Assembly (NCBI GenBank): GCA_951406725.2
Contig: OX597823.1
Coordinates: 112,344,001-112,408,000, forward strand
Length of the DNA stretch: 64,000 bases
Source: Octopus vulgaris
Lineage: Eukaryota
Direction of reading: 5' to 3'
Part shown: piece after piece, positions 11,470 to 56,449 of the stretch
Layout of the letters: every line of letters starts with the position of its first letter
How positions within the stretch are numbered: position 1 is the first letter of the stretch
Notes under the pieces: generated by a model
Told to the model about the DNA's origin: nothing
Database searches by the model: none
What the model saw: only the letters and a program-made list of their open reading frames with translations
Program-made: the position numbers and the translations under genes

Positions 11470-12645
11470 TAGTTCTGATGTCATTCCCCAGCGATCGTTG
11501 CCAAGTCGATGTTCAGATGACATATCTTCACCTTGGTTTCTTCTGACTTGTGGCATCTGAATGTGTCCATGTGTCCAGGAGATTCCTTCTCTGATGCAGT
11601 CCACTGATATGCTTCCCCTACACAACCTGAAGTCAGGCCTCGATGAGTGCCTGTTCCATCCCACCTTTTGCTTGACCTTGAAAGATGACCCCTTCCAGAA
11701 ACTTGATGTCTTTAGGTAGTGTCTTCCTCTTGAAGACGACATACGGTAGCATCTTTCTTCCATCAGCCATGTAACCTAGCATCACTGTAAACCAGTCCTT
11801 CTCATGACCCATCGTGATGATTTCCCCTGTCTTCTCCCCATTCTCAGCAACACTTCTCACGATCGGAAGATTGAACATGAGGGGAATATGGACTGTGTTA
11901 CCAATGTGGATCAAAGTGCATTAAGGCCATTTACACAGGTTGATGATAAGGCAGAGAGCTGGCAGAAACGTTAGCATGTCGGGCAAAATGCTTAGCGGTA
12001 TTTCGTCTGCCGTTACGTTGTGAGTTCAAATTCCGCCAAGGTCGACTTTACCTTTCATCCTTTCGGGGTCGAAAAATTAAGTACCAGTTACGCACTGGGG
12101 TCGATGTAATCGACTTAATACCTATGTCTGTCCTTGTTTGTCCCCTCTGTGTTTAGCCCCTTGTGGGTAATAAAGAAATAGGTTGATGATAAACTGCTGG
12201 AACTTCTCAGTCTTTTTGTCAAGATCTGGCAGCTGCTGTGCAATGTGGGTGCCACGCCTGATAGACAGATCATGCCTGCACATAAACCAGAAAGCCCATG
12301 ATGTGCTGGAACAGAAGTCTCTGATGCCGATGTCTTTGGTGCTCTTATTAGCCTCGATTTGAAGGGTGAGTGTCAACACCTTTTGTCCCACCATCCTCTT
12401 CTCCTTCACCCATCTGAGAAGCCTCTCCCCCAATTCCAGCCACTGCGCTGTCTTGCCCTTAATCACCTTCTTCTTCTTGGGCATCAGCTTGATTGTGGCC
12501 TTATTGGAGCACCATCATTGGACAACAGATTCATCAAACCCAAAGTGATGGCTCACTGCATGGTTTCCAAACTCCTCAGCAAACCTGGAAACTGAGAGCT
12601 TGAAGGTGGCTGTGATTGCTCATCTCAGCATGATGACTTGGCCAT
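11470..12645 (-). pseudogene. Decayed pogo/Tigger-family (POGK-like) transposase
   Basis: Brinker-like N-terminus (ATFKLSVSRFAEEFGNHAVSHHFG), CENP-B-type HTH (WLELGERLLRWVKEKR...WAFWFMCRHDLSIRRGTHIAQQLP) and DDE_1 region (GHEKDWFTVMLGYMADGRKMLPYVVFKRKTLPK). It has stops and frameshifts, and is split by a SINE at 11950-12180 with 13-bp TSD AGGTTGATGATAA. Confidence 0.9.
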
Positions 12646-20693: not shown

Positions 20694-20735
<42 letters not shown>

Positions 20736-20863
20736 CGGGAAGCTTTATGAAAATAGACAAAAGACGAAGGCAAGTTTACAGAAATAAACAAAAGACGAAG
20801 GCAGGTAGAATACAAACAAACAATTGTATTAGTATGGCGCTCAGGAAATATAAATAAAACAAG

Positions 20864-20901
20864 TCTTTAACGTTTCGAGCCTACGCTCTTCAACAGAAAG
20901 A
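20864..20901 (-). ncRNA. Minimal type I hammerhead motif in the PLE pLTR (family B, A6U core)
   Basis: UCUUU-CUGUUGA-A-GAGC-GUAG-GCUC-GAA-ACGU-U-AAAGA: perfect 5-bp stem I, 4-bp stem II, palindromic ACGU stem III. Confidence 0.8.
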
Positions 20902-21512
20902 TACACAGAGAAAAAAATACAGAAAGAAGGAGAGAAAAAAATATGCGTGCAGAAGCTAGCGAATCAACATGGCGATCTGATTTCGGCCAGAAGTCAAAGA
21001 TCAAACATGAGATGCAAGAGCGAAATTAGGGGAGATAATAGGGTTGAATGACCTCACTCCAGCATAAGAGTGTGTGTGTGTGTGTATGAGAAGAGTGTGT
21101 GTATGAGAGAGTATTAGTGCGTATGAGAGGTCTGGACGTGTGTATGTATATATGATGTGATGTGTAAAGTCGTATGGTGTAGTGTAGAGAGAGGAGAAGA
21201 GGGGGAGGGGAGGTAAGGGGGGGGTGAAGGAGAGGAGAAGAGGTGGGGGAGAAGGAAGGAGAGGAGGGGAGAGGGAAGGGGGAGAAGGAAGGAGAGGAGA
21301 AGAGGAGGGGGAGAAGGAAGGAGAGGAGAAGAGGAGGGGGAGAAGGAAGGAGAGGAGGGGAGAGGAGTAGGGAGGATAGAGGGAGAGGGGAGAGAGAGAG
21401 AAGGGAGGGAGGGAGAAAGAGGGAAGAAGGGAAGAGGAGTAGGGGTGAAAGGATGAAGGACTGAAGAGAAGTAGGGGTCGGGAGGAGGTTAGATGAGGAG
21501 GGGGAGAGGGGG

Positions 21513-23234
21513 TTAGATGAGGAGGGGGGGAGAGTTGAGACCAAATGGCGTATAAGAGCGAAGAGAGAAGATTAATTCCTGTTCACGGCGCAAACGGGAA
21601 TCTGGATGGCCTCTGTGTAAGGACAAACCGAACACAGACAGGTGTTGCAAAGAGTGACCAGTGGAGTGGAAATGGCGTGAGACCGGTGTGTCGTTCGCAA
21701 GGCGGATGTCACAAAGGTGTTCCGCGAACCCGTCAGCCAAGCGGCGTCCCGTTTGTCCGATGTACAGGGAATGGCAGAGAGAGCAAGAGACGCAATAGAT
21801 AATATTGCTGGAGGTGCAGGTGAAGGAGTTGATGATGCGATAGGGTCGATGATGGGTGCCAGTGAGGAGGGTGGTGTTGGAGAGGTAAGGGCAAGTGCGG
21901 CAACGTGGGCGGGAGCAGGGGAACGAGCCAGGTTGGGAGGTAGGGTCAGGGAAGGAGCTATGGACCAAAAGGTCTCGAAGGTTATGGGCTCGTTTGAAAG
22001 AGGGGAGGGGTCGGTTAGGGAAGAGGTGTGAAGTGGACGAGTCGGACTGGAGATGACGGAAAGCTCGAAGAATGGTGCGTTGGAGAGGTAGGGTCGTGGG
22101 GTGGTAAGTGAGGGGAAAAGGGTGGCGGGAGACTACAGGGTGGGTTCGGGGAGAGAGAGCAGATACACGGTCCACGGAACGTGCTCTGGCAAGGGCGGTG
22201 TGGATAGTGGTGAGGGGGTATCCACGTAGGATGAAGTGGTGAGCCATACGTTGAGACTGAGTCTCAAAGTCATGGTCGTTATTACAGAGCCTACGTAGAC
22301 GGAGGAATTGGGAATAGGGGATGGAAAGCTTGGTGTGTTCTGGGTGGGAGGAAGAGAAGTTGAGGTATGAGTGTGAGTCTGTGTGTTTGTAGTGAATGGA
22401 GGTGGTAAGAGTGGAGTGAAGAATGCTAACCGAAATGTCGAGGAAGAAGACAGAGGTGTTGGAGATAGTGGAAGTGAAGTGGAGGGCTGGATGGAAAGAT
22501 TGAATGAAAGAGAGGAAGGAATCTAGATGTTCACGGGAGAGTGAGGTGGCACCGATAATGTCGTCAATGTAACGACCATATAGTTCAGGAGTGGGACCAG
22601 TGAAATTAGAGAATATTTGGGCCTCAACATAGCCAACGAACAGGTTCGCATAGTTGGGGCCCATTCGCGTTCCCATGGCCACTCCTGAAACCTGATGGTA
22701 GAACTCGCCCGTGAACGAGAAGCAATTAAGAGTAAGGTCAAGTTCGGCCAGACGAATGAGTGTGGAGGTGTCAGGTTCAGGGTTGGAGCGGAGGTCAAGA
22801 AAGTGTTGAAGTGCCTGCAGTCCTTCGTGGTGAGGGATAACGGTATAGAGGCTCTGAATGTCCATAGTAAAAAGGATTTTGGAGGAGCCGGGAGGAAAGG
22901 AGAAAGAGTTGAAAAGCCGGAGAGCATGGTTGGTATCGTGGATGTGGGAGGGAAGAGATGCCACTAGGGGGGCAAGGACACGGTCGAGGTATTTAGAGAT
23001 GAGCTCCGTGGGGCAGTTACAGGCGAAGACGATGGGGCGGCCAAGGTTGTTGGGTTTGTGGATTTTGGGGAGGAAGTAAATGGTGGGGGTACGTGGGGTT
23101 CGTACAATTAGGTTGGATGCGGTGTGGGGGAGACGGGAGGACGAGATGAGGTCGCGGACAGTAGAGGATACCGTCTGTTGGTAGCTACGTGTGGGGTTAG
23201 AGGACAGAGGGGAGTAGAAGGAGGTGTCATTGAG
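21513..23234 (-). CDS. PLE reverse transcriptase - GIY-YIG endonuclease polyprotein (573 aa, N-terminally truncated)
   Basis: Motifs LPKIHK, GRPIV, TMDIQSLYT, GVAMGTRMGPNYANLFV, RYIDD, FLD, SSSHP, linker PCSRPRCRTC, IIY..CSLC..YIGQTGR, REQELI and GLN. No internal stops. The first 26 aa of the listed 599-aa ORF come from the flanking SINE. Confidence 0.95.
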   Translation of the reverse strand, partial: LNDTSFYSPLSSNPTRSYQQTVSSTVRDLISSSRLPHTASNLIVRTPRTPTIYFLPKIHKPNNLGRPIVFACNCPTELISKYLDRVLAPLVASLPSHIHDTNHALRLFNSFSFPPGSSKILFTMDIQSLYTVIPHHEGLQALQHFLDLRSNPEPDTSTLIRLAELDLTLNCFSFTGEFYHQVSGVAMGTRMGPNYANLFVGYVEAQIFSNFTGPTPELYGRYIDDIIGATSLSREHLDSFLSFIQSFHPALHFTSTISNTSVFFLDISVSILHSTLTTSIHYKHTDSHSYLNFSSSHPEHTKLSIPYSQFLRLRRLCNNDHDFETQSQRMAHHFILRGYPLTTIHTALARARSVDRVSALSPRTHPVVSRHPFPLTYHPTTLPLQRTILRAFRHLQSDSSTSHLFPNRPLPSFKRAHNLRDLLVHSSFPDPTSQPGSFPCSRPRCRTCPYLSNTTLLTGTHHRPYRIINSFTCTSSNIIYCVSCSLCHSLYIGQTGRRLADGFAEHLCDIRLANDTPVSRHFHSTGHSLQHLSVFGLSLHRGHPDSRLRREQELIFSLRSYTPFGLNSPPLLI

Positions 23235-29499: not shown

Positions 29500-29800
29500 G
29501 ACATACAGATAGTGCACACTGGCCCTTCCCTGAGAAAAGCTCTGTTCAAGAACAACACCTCTCACTACTCTGAGGAGTGCACATTATCGAACTGCCCCAT
29601 CAATGACCCTGAATTGTGCCAGAGGACCTATGTTGTATATGAGATCATCTGTGGCAGATGTGACGCATCCTACATGGGAAGCACAATGAGAAAACTGCAT
29701 ATATGCATTAAGGAACACATGCAGATGCAGGCAGACGCTTCCGTGAAGAAACATCTACAGAAATGCCAGATCCAGGAAATTACAGTGCACATCAAGGCAA
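29500..29800 (+). pseudogene. PLE GIY-YIG endonuclease fragment
   Basis: CTLSNCPINDPELCQRTYVVYEIICGRCDASYMGSTMRKLHICIKEH...SVKKHLQKC (VVY..CxxC..YMG..EH). Confidence 0.85.
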
Positions 29801-29849
29801 CACACACACAAACACACACACACACACACACATATACATATATATTTAA

Positions 29850-42174: not shown

Positions 42175-42179
<5 letters not shown>

Positions 42180-42245
42180 AACTAATGCATTTGTTTGTTG
42201 TTTACACACTCGTCTTCATCTTTTATTTTTTTGTAAATTCTCACT
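42175..42245 (+). mobile_element. Extreme 3' tip of family B pLTR between (TA)n tracts
   Basis: Matches 45607-45678. Confidence 0.7.
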
Positions 42246-43323: not shown

Positions 43324-43992
43324 CATATATACGACAGGCTTCTTTCAGTTTCCGTCAACCAAATCCACTCACAAGGCATTGGTCAGCCCGGGGCTATAGC
43401 AGAAGACACTTGCCCAAGATGCCACGCAGTGGGACTGAACCCGGAACCATGTGGTTGGTTAGCAAGCTACTTACCACACAGCCACTCCTGCGCCTATATA
43501 TATATATATATATACATAAATATCTCCAATATTTCATGAGTATAACCTCACCCACTAAGATGTCTAGAGAACTCATATGTATTTATATGATGAGTACGGG
43601 ACACTTTTATCTGCTGCAATTTTTGCAACTTGTAATAAAGCCTGTCTTTGTATGAAACAATTGTACTAAAAACTAATCCATTCTTGTTGCTTCTTTCTCA
43701 TATATACATAAATATATATATATACACACATTGAGTCAAACCAGGGGCAGCTGATGAAGGGGAATATTCCTTGTATTGTTTGTCTTGTACTCTGTTTTTT
43801 TGTTGTTAAAAAAAGTCCGTTTCCTTGTTTGATTTTATGTTTTCATTTCTCGTTGTGTTCTACGTTTATTTGTGGTGTCCTGTACTCATATATATATATA
43901 TATATATATATATGCATGTATATATACATATAGATGTAGGTATGTACATATATGTATGTATGTATGCATATGTTTTATTTATTAAATTGTTT

Positions 43993-44062
<70 letters not shown>

Positions 44063-44082
44063 TATATATATATATGCATATA

Positions 44083-44116
<34 letters not shown>

Positions 44117-44135
44117 TATATATATATATATATAT

Positions 44136-44350
44136 AGTTAATCCAAACATTGAACAAGCAAGAAAAAACAACAATGCGAGGACGTGGAATCAGTACAGTG
44201 TTATTGGATGCTCAGGAAAGGAAGAAAAAAGAAACATGATTTCACGTTTCGAGCGGGGCTCTTCATCAGAAATATAGAAAAGGTCCAAGGAAGGGAAGAC
44301 AGAAAGAAATTCGCCAACGATACACACATACACAAGCGGTCACACATTAA
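44136..44350 (-). mobile_element. Family A pLTR-like element with hammerhead (44239-44273)
   Basis: AUUU-CUGAUGA-A-GAGC-CCC-GCUC-GAA-ACGU-G-AAAU. The core is intact but the cleavage triplet is GUG. Confidence 0.78.
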
Positions 44351-45516: not shown

Positions 45517-45677
45517 TTTTCTATTTTCTCTCCCTGTTTATTTCTCTGTTCCTTTCTGTCGAAGAGCATAGGCTCGAAACATAAAAGACTTTCTCACTTC
45601 CTGTGTGTTAAACTAATACATCTGTTTGTTGTTTACACACCTGTCTTCGTCTTTTGTTTTTTTTTGTAAATTCTTAC

Positions 45678-45714
<37 letters not shown>

Positions 45715-45905
45715 AGGGGAAGAATTCACAAAAAAAAAGACGAAGACAGGTGTGTAAACAACAAACAGATGTATTAGTTTAACACACAGGAAGTGAGAAA
45801 GTCTTTTATATTTCGAGCCTATGCTCTTTGACAGAAAGGAACACAAAGAAATAAGAAAAGAAAAGAAAGAGAGAAAATAAAGAATGTGTAGTGGCTAGTG
45901 ATCTA
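45517..45905. mobile_element. Tail-to-tail pair of family B pLTR-like elements inside a family 1 SINE
   Basis: Inverted copies at 45517-45678 (+) and 45716-45905 (-) around a TA/TG tract. Hammerhead motifs at 45552-45587 (+) and 45803-45838 (-). SINE halves at 45388-45510 and 45905-46122. Confidence 0.85.
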
Positions 45906-49130: not shown

Positions 49131-49233
<103 letters not shown>

Positions 49234-49286
49234 CTCTATAATGTTGCTACTTGATTTGAAAATTTTTGTATTAATGGAAAACCTTA

Positions 49287-49379
49287 TAATTGGCTGATGA
49301 GTACTCAACATCTTAAATCTGTTGTAATACTTACAACATTTAATAAAATTATGTTGTACGAAACGATCGTACCAAATTA
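49287..49379 (+). ncRNA. Canonical type I hammerhead ribozyme with long stem II
   Basis: UAAUUGG-CUGAUGA-GUAC...(UGUUGUAA/UUACAACA inner helix)...GUAC-GAA-ACGAUCGU-A-CCAAAUUA. GUA cleavage triplet, cut after 49371. Lies within a TA-flanked element at 49230-49508. Confidence 0.9.
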
Positions 49380-51355
49380 CCAGAGCCATTCTTGTTGCTT
49401 TTTTTTATTATAATCACCCCACAGATTTTTATGGATAACACCATACAAAATTCTGGTGCATCTAAATTAAGTACCATATTCATTTGAATCTAAATTTTTG
49501 CTGAACTTATATATATATATATCAGTTGAATAAAGTTAAAACAGTCTGGTTTTTATGTTTTTTATTATAGCATTTTAACAAAATTAACTCTTTCATACTT
49601 AAAGTGTTGTCTTTTGGGATGGGCGTTTAAAAATTTTTTTGCCAGATGCTGGTGTGTTTATGTCCCCGTAACTTAGTGGTTCGGCAAAGAGACCGATAGA
49701 ATAAGTACTAGTCTTACAAAGATTAAGTCTTGGGGTCGATTTGCTCAACTAAAGGTGGTGCTCCAGCATGGCCGCAGTCAAATGACTGAAACAAGTAAAA
49801 GAGTAAAAAGAGAGTATACACATGCACTGTGTAGTCGTCCTTCCCTCGTTTATTACCGTTCCTATTCTAACTCACGTCCATTGTCTGGAAATCTTTCGTC
49901 ACACATCTGTGACCTCCTCAGTGTCACTTTCCATCTTCGTGTGTGTTCTTGCTTGGCTTATTCCATTCATATATATAGATGATGATAATGATGATGGATT
50001 CTCTTGTCATGATTAACAAATGTGAGTTCTGTAAAATAAAGCAGTAATCATGTTCTATGGACATGAATGTGTCTCTTGAAGCTTGCTGGTGCCTTGCAAA
50101 CCTTTTGGCAAATAGAACAAGTCGAGGACTCAATTTGCTTGTGAATCATTTACACTCATGCACATACATATACTCTTTTTAACTCTTTTACTTGTTTCAG
50201 TCATTTGACTGCGGCCATGCTGAAGCAAATCGACCCCGGGACTTATTCTTTGTAAGCCCAGTACTTATTCTATCGGTCTCTTTTTGCCGAACCGCTAAGT
50301 GATGGGGACGTAAACACACCAGCATCAGTTGTCAAGCAATGCTAGGGGGATAAACACAGACACACAAACATACATATATATATATACATATATACGACAG
50401 GCTTCTTTCAGTTTCCCTCTACCAAATCCACTCACAAGGCATTGGTCATCCCGGGGCTATAGCAGAAGACACTTGCCCAAGATGCCACACAGTGGGACTG
50501 AACCCGGAACCATGTGGTTGGTTAGCAAGCTACTTACCACACAGCCACTCCTGCGCCTTATTATTAATATGCTTATTATTTTTATTAATATTAAAGCAGT
50601 AAGCTGGGAGAATTGTTAGCATGGCAAAGTGTTCTGTGCCATTTCTTCAGACTTTTTACTTTGTATGTTCAGAGAAGTACAAGCTGAAGTATACCAAGAT
50701 TGAAGGAGGAGATGGAAACTTATTACACAAAGTACAACTGGGATTTCCTTTGATTCAGTCTACACATGGCTAAAGTTCTGTGGTTACTCTTTTACTCTTT
50801 TACTTGTTTCAGTCATTTCACTGCGGCCATGCTGGAGCACCGTCTTTAATCGAGCAACTCGACCCTGGGACTTATTCTTTCGTAAGTCCAGTACTTATTC
50901 TATCGGTTTCTTTTGCCGAACCGCTAAGTGACGGGGACATAAACACACCAGCATCGGTTGTCAAGCAATGCTTGGGGGACAAACACAGACACACAAACAT
51001 ACACACATACATATATATATATATATACATATATACGACGGGCTTCTTTCAGTTTCCGTCTACCAAATCCACTCACAAGGCTTTGGTTGGCCCGAGGCTA
51101 TAGTAGAAGACACTTGCCCAAGGTGCCATGCAGTGGGACTGAACCCGGAACCATGTGGTTGGTAAACAAGCTACTTACCACACAGCCACGCCTGCGTCTA
51201 TAAAAAGTGTGCGAGACAGCGCCAGTGGTTTTCAGGGTATGAAGAATTCAACGAGAGTTCAGATTAACAAAGTAACCACATGGCTAAGCCCACACAGTAT
51301 GCCTTTGTGGAAAAATTTGAAACCATTATTATCATCATCATCATTATTATTACTA

Positions 51356-52431: not shown

Positions 52432-52805
52432 GATTATTAAGGTGGCCAACTGGCAAAATTGTTAGTATGCTGGATGAAATGCTTAGTGGTACTTTGCCTG
52501 TCACTATGTTCTGAGTTCAAATTCTACTGAGGTCAACTTTACCTTTCATCCTTTCAGGGTCAATAAATTAAGTACCAGCAATCAGACAGGTGAGTTAGTG
52601 GAATAGCAATGTAGATGAAGCCTTCAAAGCTAAGAGACAGGCCAGAAAGATGAGAGAAAAGAGAATAACAGAGACTAAGGATATATTGGATTGCAATGCA
52701 GTTTACTCAAGAGAATTGAGAGCTGAGAGTTCAGAAGTTTAATACGAAATTTTGACTATTTGTTTCTTTTAGTTATATTATTGTCTGTCTCCAACTTTCT
52801 GTACA

Positions 52806-53430
<625 letters not shown>

Positions 53431-53513
53431 TCGACATCAGTGGCAGACGCCATTAGAAAAACTTATATAGGTTTGCAAAGCAGCCTTCACTTTCATCACG
53501 ACCTGGTGGTTAC

Positions 53514-53556
53514 CGCCCTTTGACGAGGGACAACAATCCCGAAACTAGTTCGAGCG
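53514..53556 (+). ncRNA. Degenerate hammerhead motif (C3U) in element 53431-53722
   Basis: UUGACGA-GGGA-CAACAA-UCCC-GAA-ACUAGU-U. Stem I is only partly paired (cgccct / cgagcg). Confidence 0.6.
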
Positions 53557-53752
53557 TATAACTCAGGCTTGCGAGTAAGGGATGGCCTCCCTTTGCAAAT
53601 ACTCCAAGGACACTGATATTGTGTCTAAAGCCAGCTAGAGACGAAGATCTCTTGGGGCTATAACGCTACAGTAACACCCCCTCCCCAATGTGGTTAGCCA
53701 CGATAAGATGGCTTCTATACTTTATATATATATATATATATATATACGTATA

Positions 53753-53972
53753 AAGTTAAACCAAACATGAAAACACAAAGAGAAAACACAACAACGCGAA
53801 GACATGGAACGAGTATAGTGTTATTGGACGCTCAGGAAAGCAAAGAAAGAAGGAGGATTTAACATTTCAAGCAGAGCTCTTCGTCAGAAACATAGGGAAA
53901 AGAAAGATCCAAAGAAGGGAAGACGGAAGAAAAAAAATCGCCAATGGTACACATGCGGTACACCCGCGGTCA
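53753..53972 (-). mobile_element. Family A pLTR-like element with hammerhead (53857-53891)
   Basis: GUUU-CUGACGA-A-GAGC-UCU-GCUU-GAA-AUGU-U-AAAU, with TA flanks. Confidence 0.78.
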
Positions 53973-54021
53973 CATATATATACATACACATAGCCATACT
54001 TACATACATATATACATACAT

Positions 54022-54070
<49 letters not shown>

Positions 54071-54261
54071 CAATTGAGGATAAAATCTTTAAAAGAAATT
54101 ATCAGTAGTTTTATTCCGAATAGACAATTTGTAACCGAAATGCATTGCGAATAAGCCCGCCATTTTCATAGATATGTAAAGATAAACATTCGGACATGCT
54201 ACGACGAATTCTACGGTTGGCTATCGAGCTTGTAATGTTATGTTTTTCTCTTATATTTCTT

Positions 54262-54340
54262 GAGTTTGTTGCACTGATGAACATAAAAATGCATATTCTG
54301 CATTTAAATGCGAAATCACATGTGATATGTAACTGAATTC
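54262..54340 (+). ncRNA. Type I hammerhead motif in TA-flanked element 54067-54457
   Basis: GUUGCA-CUGAUGA-ACAU..AAAUGCA/UGCAUUU..AUGC-GAA-AUCACAUGUGAU-A-UGUAAC. 12-nt palindromic stem III. The closing pair of stem II is an A-C mismatch. Confidence 0.82.
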
Positions 54341-54682
54341 TTTTTTAAAATGATGTGTTTTGAAGTTTTGCATTCGGTAAAATTTTGTTTATTTAGTAGT
54401 TTTGACCGCATTGGTCCCTCTTAGCGTGTTGGTATCTACGAATAGTAGTACCCTCAATATAATATATATATATATATATAAGTAGACAAATGAATTATCT
54501 TATTACGGATAATTCGAAAGATAACCGATACCTGGGTAGCAAACTCACAACAGAAAGGGCACGGTTGAAGTTACGACCATAGGGCATAAAATCCGTGCCT
54601 TAGTGCGGAAATTTGAAGTATCATATATTAAGTATAGGAAAGAATGGAGCTGAACAAAGATTTAACAAAATTCCTTTATTTT

Positions 54683-54768
54683 ATTTTCGACATATGTTTC
54701 GAAGTCTGCAAAGCCTCTAATTCCGAATGAATAAGGAGTCCATTATGCAGCTTTCTCTTCAGGAAAAT
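54683..54768 (-). ncRNA. Canonical type I hammerhead ribozyme (left arm)
   Basis: AUUUUC-CUGAAGA-G...long stem II...C-GAA-ACAUAUGU-C-GAAAAU, GUC triplet. Confidence 0.88.
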
Positions 54769-54901
54769 CCAGGAACTTAATTCTTTTCGACAACTGCTCA
54801 CGAGGAGCCCATAAAAATAATGATCCATTATTTTTATGGGCTCCTCGTGAGCAGTCGTCGAAAAGCTTGTTGTGCATTTTGTTGGAGAATTAAGTTCCTG
54901 G

Positions 54902-54987
54902 ATTTTCCTGAAGAGAAAGCTGCATAATGGACTCCTTATTCACTCGGAATTAGGGGCTTTGCAGACTTCGAAACATACGTCGAAAAT
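54902..54987 (+). ncRNA. Canonical type I hammerhead ribozyme (right arm)
   Basis: AUUUUC-CUGAAGA-GAAAGCUGCA...UGCAGACUUC-GAA-ACAUACGU-C-GAAAAU, GUC triplet, cut after 54981. Confidence 0.88.
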
Positions 54988-55041
54988 AAAATAAAGGAAT
55001 TTTGTTAAATCTTCGTTCAGCTCCATTCTTTCCTATACTTA

Positions 55042-55092
<51 letters not shown>

Positions 55093-55840: not shown

Positions 55841-56449
55841 GGTTGCAGTGGTGAGGGTTGCTGGTATGAGGGTTGTAGCGATGAGGGTTGCAGTGATGAG
55901 GATTGCAGTGATGAGGGTTGCAGCAATGAAGGTTACAATGAGGAGTGTTGCAGGGATGAGTGTTGCAGGGATGAGGGTTGCAGGGATGAGGGTTGTAGTG
56001 ATGAGGGTTGCAGCAATGAGGTTTGCAGGGATGAGTGTTGCAGTGATGAGTTCTGCAGCAATGAGGGTTGCAGTGATGAGTTCTGCAGCGATGACAGTTG
56101 CTGCGATGACGGTTGCAGCGATGAGGGTTGCAGCAATGAGGGTTACAATGAGGAGTGTTGCAGTGATGAGGGTTGCAGCGATGAGGGTTGCAGGGATGAG
56201 GGTTGCAGCAATGAGGGTTGCAGGGATGAGGGTTGCAGCAATGAGGTTTGCAGCAATGAGGGTTACAATGAGGAGTGTTGCAGTGATGAGTGTTGCAGCG
56301 ATGAGTGTTGCAGTGATGAGGGTTGTAGCAATGAGAGTTGCAGCGATGAGGGTTGTAGCGATGAGGGTTGCAGCGATGAAGGTTACAATGAGGAGTGTTG
56401 CAGTGATGAGGGTTGCAGTGATGAGGGTTGCACATATGAGAGTTGCAGT
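55841..56449. repeat. 15-bp minisatellite (GATGAGGGTTGCAGY), about 40 units
   Basis: Direct reading, with a recurring variant ggttacaatgaggagtgttg. Confidence 0.95.

Follow-up and report, generated by a model that had tools for sequence, protein, structure and literature searches.

Introduction

Penelope-like elements (PLEs) of metazoans carry hammerhead ribozymes in their pLTRs. As described by Cervera and De la Pena (2014, PMC4209133), these motifs belong to type I and have a short or palindromic helix III (palindromic loop III), a helix I of 4–6 bp and an enlarged helix II; most are solo truncated copies, thousands per genome, and opposite-strand pairs lie a few hundred base pairs apart (100–700 bp). 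Endonuclease-positive (EN+) PLEs with a CX2-5CxxC linker, of the Neptune/Nematis type, are described with (TA)n targets and with an inverted 5′-truncated copy (Craig et al. 2021, PMC8557442). A common PLE arrangement is the head-to-head pair with a palindrome at its junction (PMC3846280), and insertion into or beside earlier PLE copies has been reported (PMC6765202). AT-rich DNA is cleaved by PLE proteins, which also prime reverse transcription; according to the same source, insertion in vitro does not require the hammerhead, whose own cleavage depends on the protein (PMC11167929).

Two further systems are close. SaTar arrays of plants are composed of MULE DNA transposons with terminal inverted repeats, in which microsatellite targeting gives rise to rows of uninterrupted, mixed-family elements with (TA)n links between them (Valdes Franco et al. 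2018, PMC5907723). Non-LTR retrozymes are short, non-coding elements of low GC content with a type I hammerhead, a proposed origin from PLE pLTRs and a head-to-tail tandem arrangement of one monomer (PMC7229834; bioRxiv 10.64898/2026.07.22.740005). For Octopus vulgaris, recently active Penelope families are described in a study whose main text does not mention ribozymes (PMC13282606), and 235 hammerhead-1 loci are given for the giant squid (PMC6962438). A literature search, which left aside most subscription papers, Repbase and supplements and is thus no proof of novelty, returned no study of mixed-family arrays of hammerhead-bearing PLE ends in cephalopods; published supplementary family lists may already include the motifs described below.

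The locus compared with these systems is a block of about 1.6 kb in a 64 kb window of Octopus vulgaris DNA (the window being the whole stretch analysed), composed of five units, U1 to U5 from left to right. Its motifs are of the PMC4209133 kind in type, in helices and in the presence of an opposite-strand pair; it differs from the hammerheads described there in a helix II of 31–55 nt with internal loops (U3, U5) and in having four families within 1.6 kb. An ORF elsewhere in the window has the reverse transcriptase (RT)-CX4CXXC-GIY-YIG-type order of EN+ PLEs, a likeness of domain layout, and (TA)n targets and an inverted 5′-truncated copy are shared with them as well. The stacked units themselves lack an ORF, and sequence links U2 alone to the one elsewhere. 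Unlike SaTars, with which it shares uninterrupted mixed-family elements linked by (TA)n, the block is made of animal retroelement ends with hammerheads. Its interpretation as a non-LTR retrozyme was rejected, there being no head-to-tail copies of one monomer: neighbouring units are non-homologous and of mixed orientation, U5 is inverted, and the units are at most retrozyme-like monomers. What they have in common with retrozymes is a short, non-coding sequence of low GC content and a type I hammerhead.

In our judgement, the block very probably consists of 3′ ends (pLTRs) with hammerheads, piled up by separate insertion into (TA)n and derived from four, perhaps five, families of endonuclease-positive PLEs. 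U4 is best read as a core-less remnant within this stack.

Layout of the block

All tests were confined to the window, which is AT-rich DNA of animal type with many SINE-like dispersed repeats; 24 % of it is masked as short tandem repeats. A repeat search of the whole window was swamped by microsatellites, and copies were therefore compared by using masked self-blast. Other features of the window include a fragment of a Tc5 transposase DNA-binding domain (12125–12514, minus strand; Pfam E 1.6e-5), an Rfam Vault RNA match (51205–51295, minus strand; 42.9 bits, gathering score 34) that is followed by a T run, has a single copy in the window and is plausibly a genuine gene for vault RNA, with a SINE-like repeat beside it, and a 15-bp minisatellite of about 40 copies that is open in several frames (55841–56448).

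Re-reading of the positions on the sequence placed the five units at the coordinates given in the earlier note (Table 1). Of the four inner spacers, described there as mostly (TA)n, two are clean (TA)n, one is mixed TA/CA, and ATATAT alone separates U4 from U5. The array to the left of U1 is preceded by an 88-nt repeat end, which also precedes an (ATCT)n(TA)n tract and a hammerhead element at 49 kb. Sequence inspection and self-blast gave a modular, microsatellite-linked order of mixed families in which no unit is interrupted by another. Since U1, U2, U3 and U5 are without significant mutual blastn similarity (best E 0.16), the claim of four different families was right, as was that of motifs on both strands (three plus, two minus).

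Terminal inverted repeats were absent from U1–U4 in the masked self-blast. Neither a target-site duplication nor a 30–40 bp tail was seen; the flanks are microsatellite, and both U5 arms end at the same base. Six-frame translation of U1–U5 gave no ORF for RT plus GIY-YIG endonuclease, as expected of solo or truncated ends. A search of sequencing runs gave 24 rows with part of the block; the 20 among the matches listed came from 10 studies, with a best share of 0.52, a result that shows neither joined order nor expression and was not used as evidence.

Table 1. Positions of the units, spacers and motifs of the block and of the Penelope-like element in the window.
Feature	Position	Strand	Description
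5′-truncated PLE	20735..23222	-	RT (RVT_1), CX4CXXC linker, C-terminal GIY-YIG-type endonuclease
(CTAT/CTGT)n array left of U1	52805..53430	.	not TA; likely seed microsatellite
U1	53431..53722	+	PLE-end-like cassette, family 1; single copy in window; 3′ end against (TA)n
U1 hammerhead-like motif	53514..53556	+	core UUGACGA (C3→U), GAAA 53541, H17 53550
(TA)n, 24 bp	53723..53746	.	common to U1 and U2, placed tail to tail
U2	53747..53974	-	dispersed non-autonomous element or solo pLTR, ~225 bp
U2 minimal hammerhead	53857..53891	-	core CUGACGA intact, GAAA 53868, H17 53861
Mixed TA/CA spacer, 93 bp	53975..54067	.	between U2 and U3 5′ ends
U3	54068..54457	+	PLE-end-like cassette, family 3; single copy in window
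U3 hammerhead	54268..54333	+	core CUGAUGA, GAAA 54312, H17 54327
(TA)n spacer, 23 bp	54458..54480	.	
U4	54481..54622	+	structured cassette, 140 nt
ATATAT	54623..54628	.	sole U4–U5 spacer
U5 left arm (U5L)	54629..54822	-	
U5L hammerhead	left arm	-	core CUGAAGA at 54762, long stem II, loop CAUAUG, H17 54689, 6-bp stem I
Loop, 3 nt	54823..54825	.	head-to-head junction of U5 arms
U5 right arm (U5R)	54826..55041	+	
U5R hammerhead	right arm	+	core CUGAAGA at 54908, loop CAUACG, H17 54981, 6-bp stem I
(TA)n	55042..55083	.	closes stack on right

Detection of the hammerhead-like motifs

The five hammerheads that had been claimed are present as type I hammerhead-like motifs, with C3 at 53520(+), 53887(-), 54274(+), 54762(-) and 54908(+), but the two in U5 are arms of one inverted repeat. 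H17 lies 60–172 nt from a 3′ end in U1, U2, U3, U5L and U5R, and 134 nt in the PLE. The core CUGANGA, GAAA and UH are complete in U2, U3, U5L and U5R; the set is incomplete in U1, which has uridine at position 3 opposite G8, and in U4, from which the core is absent. The G10.1-C11.1 pair at the base of stem II is kept in U1, U5L and U5R and is replaced by G·U in U2 and by A·C in U3.

Three descriptors were needed, none of which caught all five motifs: the first matched U1, U3 and U5L, the second U2, and the third U1, U2, U5L and U5R, with U3 missed on account of the A·C at its stem II base. When the third descriptor was run on 2000 unit-wise dinucleotide shuffles, one match was obtained in 20 of them and two in none, compared with four in the real block. 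Rfam hammerhead models gave no match in the window at gathering score, nor at E≤5 in 48–56 kb; no other Rfam ribozyme model matched, and the matches over U5 were hairpin look-alikes below gathering score.

Pattern scans returned no U2 motif in viral contigs or prokaryote genomes, no U5 motif in viral contigs and no U3 motif in prokaryote genomes. Five metagenome matches of the U2 motif were dismissed as chance 21-mers, none with flanking similarity. The collections scanned are poor in animal DNA, and these blank results are therefore uninformative as to whether the block occurs elsewhere as one composite element.

State and folding of the motifs

The U1 motif, with a 4-bp stem II on a G-C base, the palindrome ACUAGU and four of six pairs in stem I, is decayed. 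U2 departs from its family majority by C11.1→U and by CG→UG in the loop, a decay of CpG type; its three sister copies have G-C at 10.1–11.1. The U3 motif combines a long stem II, whose base has lost G10.1, with a 6-bp stem I and the 12-nt palindrome AUCACAUGUGAU, and its loop III would be able, in a monomer, to close a stem of 4 bp. The U5 pair, in which loop III of U5R is an imperfect palindrome, is the only one to retain the core, G10.1-C11.1 and the 6-bp stem I together.

For each motif the active fold lies 2–6.5 kcal/mol above the minimum-energy fold, and the hammerhead regions fold no better than shuffles (z -1.1 to +0.9). On either strand, U5 in its entirety forms a hairpin of ~200 bp (about -330 kcal/mol), in which read-through RNA would, according to the folding model, bury both motifs. 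No two motifs of the same family lie on one strand within the block; loop III segments of different families on the same strand pair weakly (+0.8 to -2.3 kcal/mol).

The earlier note had called the locus a ribozyme hotspot. With decay in each of U1–U3, no same-family dimer partner on the same strand and the predicted burial of both U5 motifs, it is a motif cluster and not a demonstrated ribozyme hotspot; as a functional statement, the term is not supported. The hammerheads are probably, as judged from sequence, passengers from the source elements and mostly inactive in place. That they form a selected cluster of working ribozymes processing a host or chimeric transcript is extremely unlikely: the 6-bp stems I and long stems II of U3 and U5 and the potential monomer stem of U3 would suit such a role, but C3→U in U1, the CpG-type decay of U2, the loss of G10.1-C11.1 in U3, the U5 hairpin and the barely pairing cross-family loops speak against it, as do the reports that PLE hammerheads cleave poorly alone (PMC4209133) or need protein (PMC11167929).

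In U4, the hairpin followed by GAAA without a core, noticed earlier, was found as an 8-bp hairpin (54492–54515) with a G-C base and GAAA at 54516–54519. A hairpin directly before GAAA arose in 6 of 5000 shuffles, for a pattern that was chosen post hoc. U4 has no palindromic loop III. It is tentatively read as a probable PLE end that was truncated immediately above stem II. Inspection by eye led to its rejection as a type II or III hammerhead, there being no room for a core, and as a minus-strand hammerhead, the minus strand having no GAAA. The minus strand of U4 folds well (z -3.3).

The U2 family and the Penelope-like element of the window

The PLE of the window contains an open frame of 569 aa (21516–23222, minus strand) with RVT_1 at E 1.5e-7. 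The CX4CXXC linker and the GIY-YIG-type C terminus were read by eye, the GIY-YIG domain not being called by Pfam. Atlas neighbours of the ORF (0.97) are eukaryote-rich clusters with RVT_1, GIY-YIG and HTH_animal; NCBIfam gave weak RT matches, and a PDB sequence search no match. At its 3′ end the element has a hammerhead-like motif with the core CUGUUGA at 20896, and it stops at (TA)n (20701–20734). This core is an A6→U variant, and related arms at 45.5–45.9 kb read CUGUC; from these sequences, A6→U may be a core variant at the level of the family. A second PLE remnant is probably represented by the isolated GIY-YIG-like endonuclease fragment with a cysteine linker at 29509–29829 (+), judging from its sequence, for which tblastn similarity to the PLE ORF is weak (E 0.002).

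The similarity of U2 to the PLE 3′ end amounts to 70.5 % over 95 nt (E 9.8e-5), with the hammerhead and a downstream motif aligned. The window holds three further copies of U2, each standing alone and 10–24 % apart in pairwise comparison. The 3′ end at (TA)n is common to all four copies and the 5′ end to three of them; such boundaries, common to lone copies, define U2 as a non-autonomous element or solo pLTR. No match to the single PLE of the window was found for U1, U3, U4 or U5, nor a second copy in the window (masked self-blast), nor a linked ORF (six frames). Their assignment to PLEs is consequently an anatomical one, based for U1, U3 and U5 on a type I motif 60–172 nt upstream of a 3′ end on TA.

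These results bear on the proposal that the whole block moves as a single composite element, which we regard as very unlikely. Capture of unrelated DNA between pLTRs has been reported (PMC3846280), four of the five units are single-copy in the window and none interrupts another, all of which a composite would accommodate; yet U2 occurs three more times without its neighbours, and the units are non-homologous, of mixed orientation and devoid of a common terminal repeat or flanking duplication.

The inverted pair U5

U5 is a near-perfect palindrome of 413 bp flanked by TA, in which the arms stand head to head around a 3-nt loop with no internal region. As one head-to-head inverted insertion, it accounts for its two hammerheads by one event, and the five independent ribozyme events of the earlier note are reduced to four. 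Alignment of the arms over 196 bases shows 5 differences, in addition to one 22-nt indel; all five substitutions are transitions, three at CpG. In each of them the right arm has C or G and the left arm T or A, and the 22-nt segment is also missing from the left arm. Decay so one-sided has a probability of about 1 in 16 by chance, and the arms may have been copied from different templates. A-to-I editing is not favoured as the source of the differences, which are on mixed strands with three of five at CpG.

Non-identity of the arms identifies U5 as a real, aged inverted pair and argues against a fold-back artefact. Misassembly, whether of U5 in this way or of repeat fragments joined through TA tracts, has very little probability in our estimate: all junctions are of low complexity and inverted PLE structures trouble assemblers (PMC8557442), but only 6 bp of TA lie at the U4/U5 junction, and the same architecture recurs at 43.5–44.3 kb and 45.5–45.9 kb. 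It is also improbable that some units, chiefly U5, are TA-targeting DNA transposons of foldback or MITE type, as in plant SaTar arrays, with inherited or incidental hammerheads. The TA-flanked palindrome, the Tc5-type fragment in the window and the published modular (TA)n-linked arrays of MULE elements (PMC5907723) would fit this reading; against it, each U5 arm is a full outward-pointing hammerhead 60 nt from the end, as in the other units and the PLE, no internal region separates the arms, and U1–U4 lack terminal inverted repeats.

Clustering and other stacks in the window

PLE-type ends were listed by hand, with U5 counted once; the strict list has 13 ends, and the loose list of 15 adds U4 and the half-core element at 43730–43887. 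Under uniform placement in the window, 4 of 13 ends within 1620 bp correspond to P 0.033 and 5 of 15 to P 0.005, values that overstate significance because the window was picked for the cluster; the clustering is modest and post hoc. Of the 3′ ends listed, 13 of 16 have a TA tract no more than 12 bp away, compared with 9 % of positions; this comparison is partly circular, because the tract itself was taken as the end, by eye, in some cases.

The 15 ends occupy 8 microsatellite sites, and 10 of them share a site with another end. Without reinforcement, such sharing has P 0.04, 0.0008 and 0.0000 (rounded) for 20, 40 and 70 available sites (30 000 trials); with one new target per insertion, P is 0.41, 0.038 and 0.003. 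Reinforcement fits better at each of these three assumed numbers of usable sites, but poorly at 70; since one added target per insertion under-predicts the sharing there, something more may act. The earlier view of unrelated cassettes inserted separately between simple repeats is supported by the three lone U2 copies with common ends, by the site sharing of 10 of 15 ends and by the better fit of the added-target model.

The site is not unique, as other stacks lie at 43.5–45.9 kb. Between TA tracts at 43495–44345 there is a second stack of three, consisting of a hammerhead element of the 49294 family, the 43730–43887 element (CUGAUGA present, GAAA absent) and a U2-family copy. At 45520–45873, two copies of one PLE-end family, 87 % alike, face each other tail to tail across a central (TA)(TG)n; this family is also represented by a 69-bp 3′ fragment between TA tracts at 42176–42244. 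With this second stack and the tail-to-tail pair, stacking is a habit of these elements here.

A full-core hammerhead element at 49230–49507 (+; C3 49294) has a stem II region of 59 nt and a perfect CGAUCG loop III, and, like the main stack, comes after the 88-nt repeat end and an (ATCT)n tract. A possible half hammerhead at 49880–49921 (-) consists of CUGAGGA, a perfect 6-bp hairpin and GAAA; there is no stem I beside it. An nhmmer profile built from an alignment of 7 copies was set aside as independent support, as it recovered these input copies by construction and one weak fragment.

Discussion

For a PLE pile-up, the following course may be envisaged. A PLE RT-endonuclease encoded elsewhere would nick (TA)n and prime reverse transcription there, as in the literature. 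Short solo-pLTR or 5′-truncated copies would be deposited so that their 3′ ends rest on the microsatellite, an anchoring that is observed, and a single event would produce a head-to-head inverted pair of the structure seen in U5. TA repeat would be left on both sides of each insertion, so that unrelated later families would land beside, not inside, earlier ones, as site occupancy favours. The copies would later decay by C→T and G→A, changes that are observed in U2 and U5. Gain of the units was, we infer, stepwise.

The block is real, beyond chance and explained by known PLE biology. What it contributes is a set of new families and a case of unusual density; the kind of system is a known one. 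Earlier publications already cover PLE hammerheads, (TA)n targeting, inverted pairs and modular microsatellite arrays, and the block is mostly ordinary repeat DNA.

Two bolder readings go further. The milder and likelier one, which we put forward tentatively and at less than even confidence, is that stacks of this sort occur throughout the genome, are still growing and are polymorphic between individuals, as an animal counterpart of the SaTar arrays of plants. The other, which we think quite improbable, is that mixed-family stacks process themselves: plus-strand read-through RNA would be cut by two unrelated hammerheads, that of U1 at 53550 and that of U3 at 54327, possibly assisted by PLE protein, and the chimeric RNA of ~780 nt so released could circularise and be re-mobilised. 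If this were true, microsatellite piles would breed new composite retrozymes.

The value of the locus lies mostly in repeat annotation, as short PLE ends escape Rfam and the hammerhead variants with a long stem II could extend descriptors. If stacks of this kind grow stepwise, the order in which several PLE families were inserted would be recorded in each, and self-reinforcing (TA)n targeting could be tested directly in an animal.
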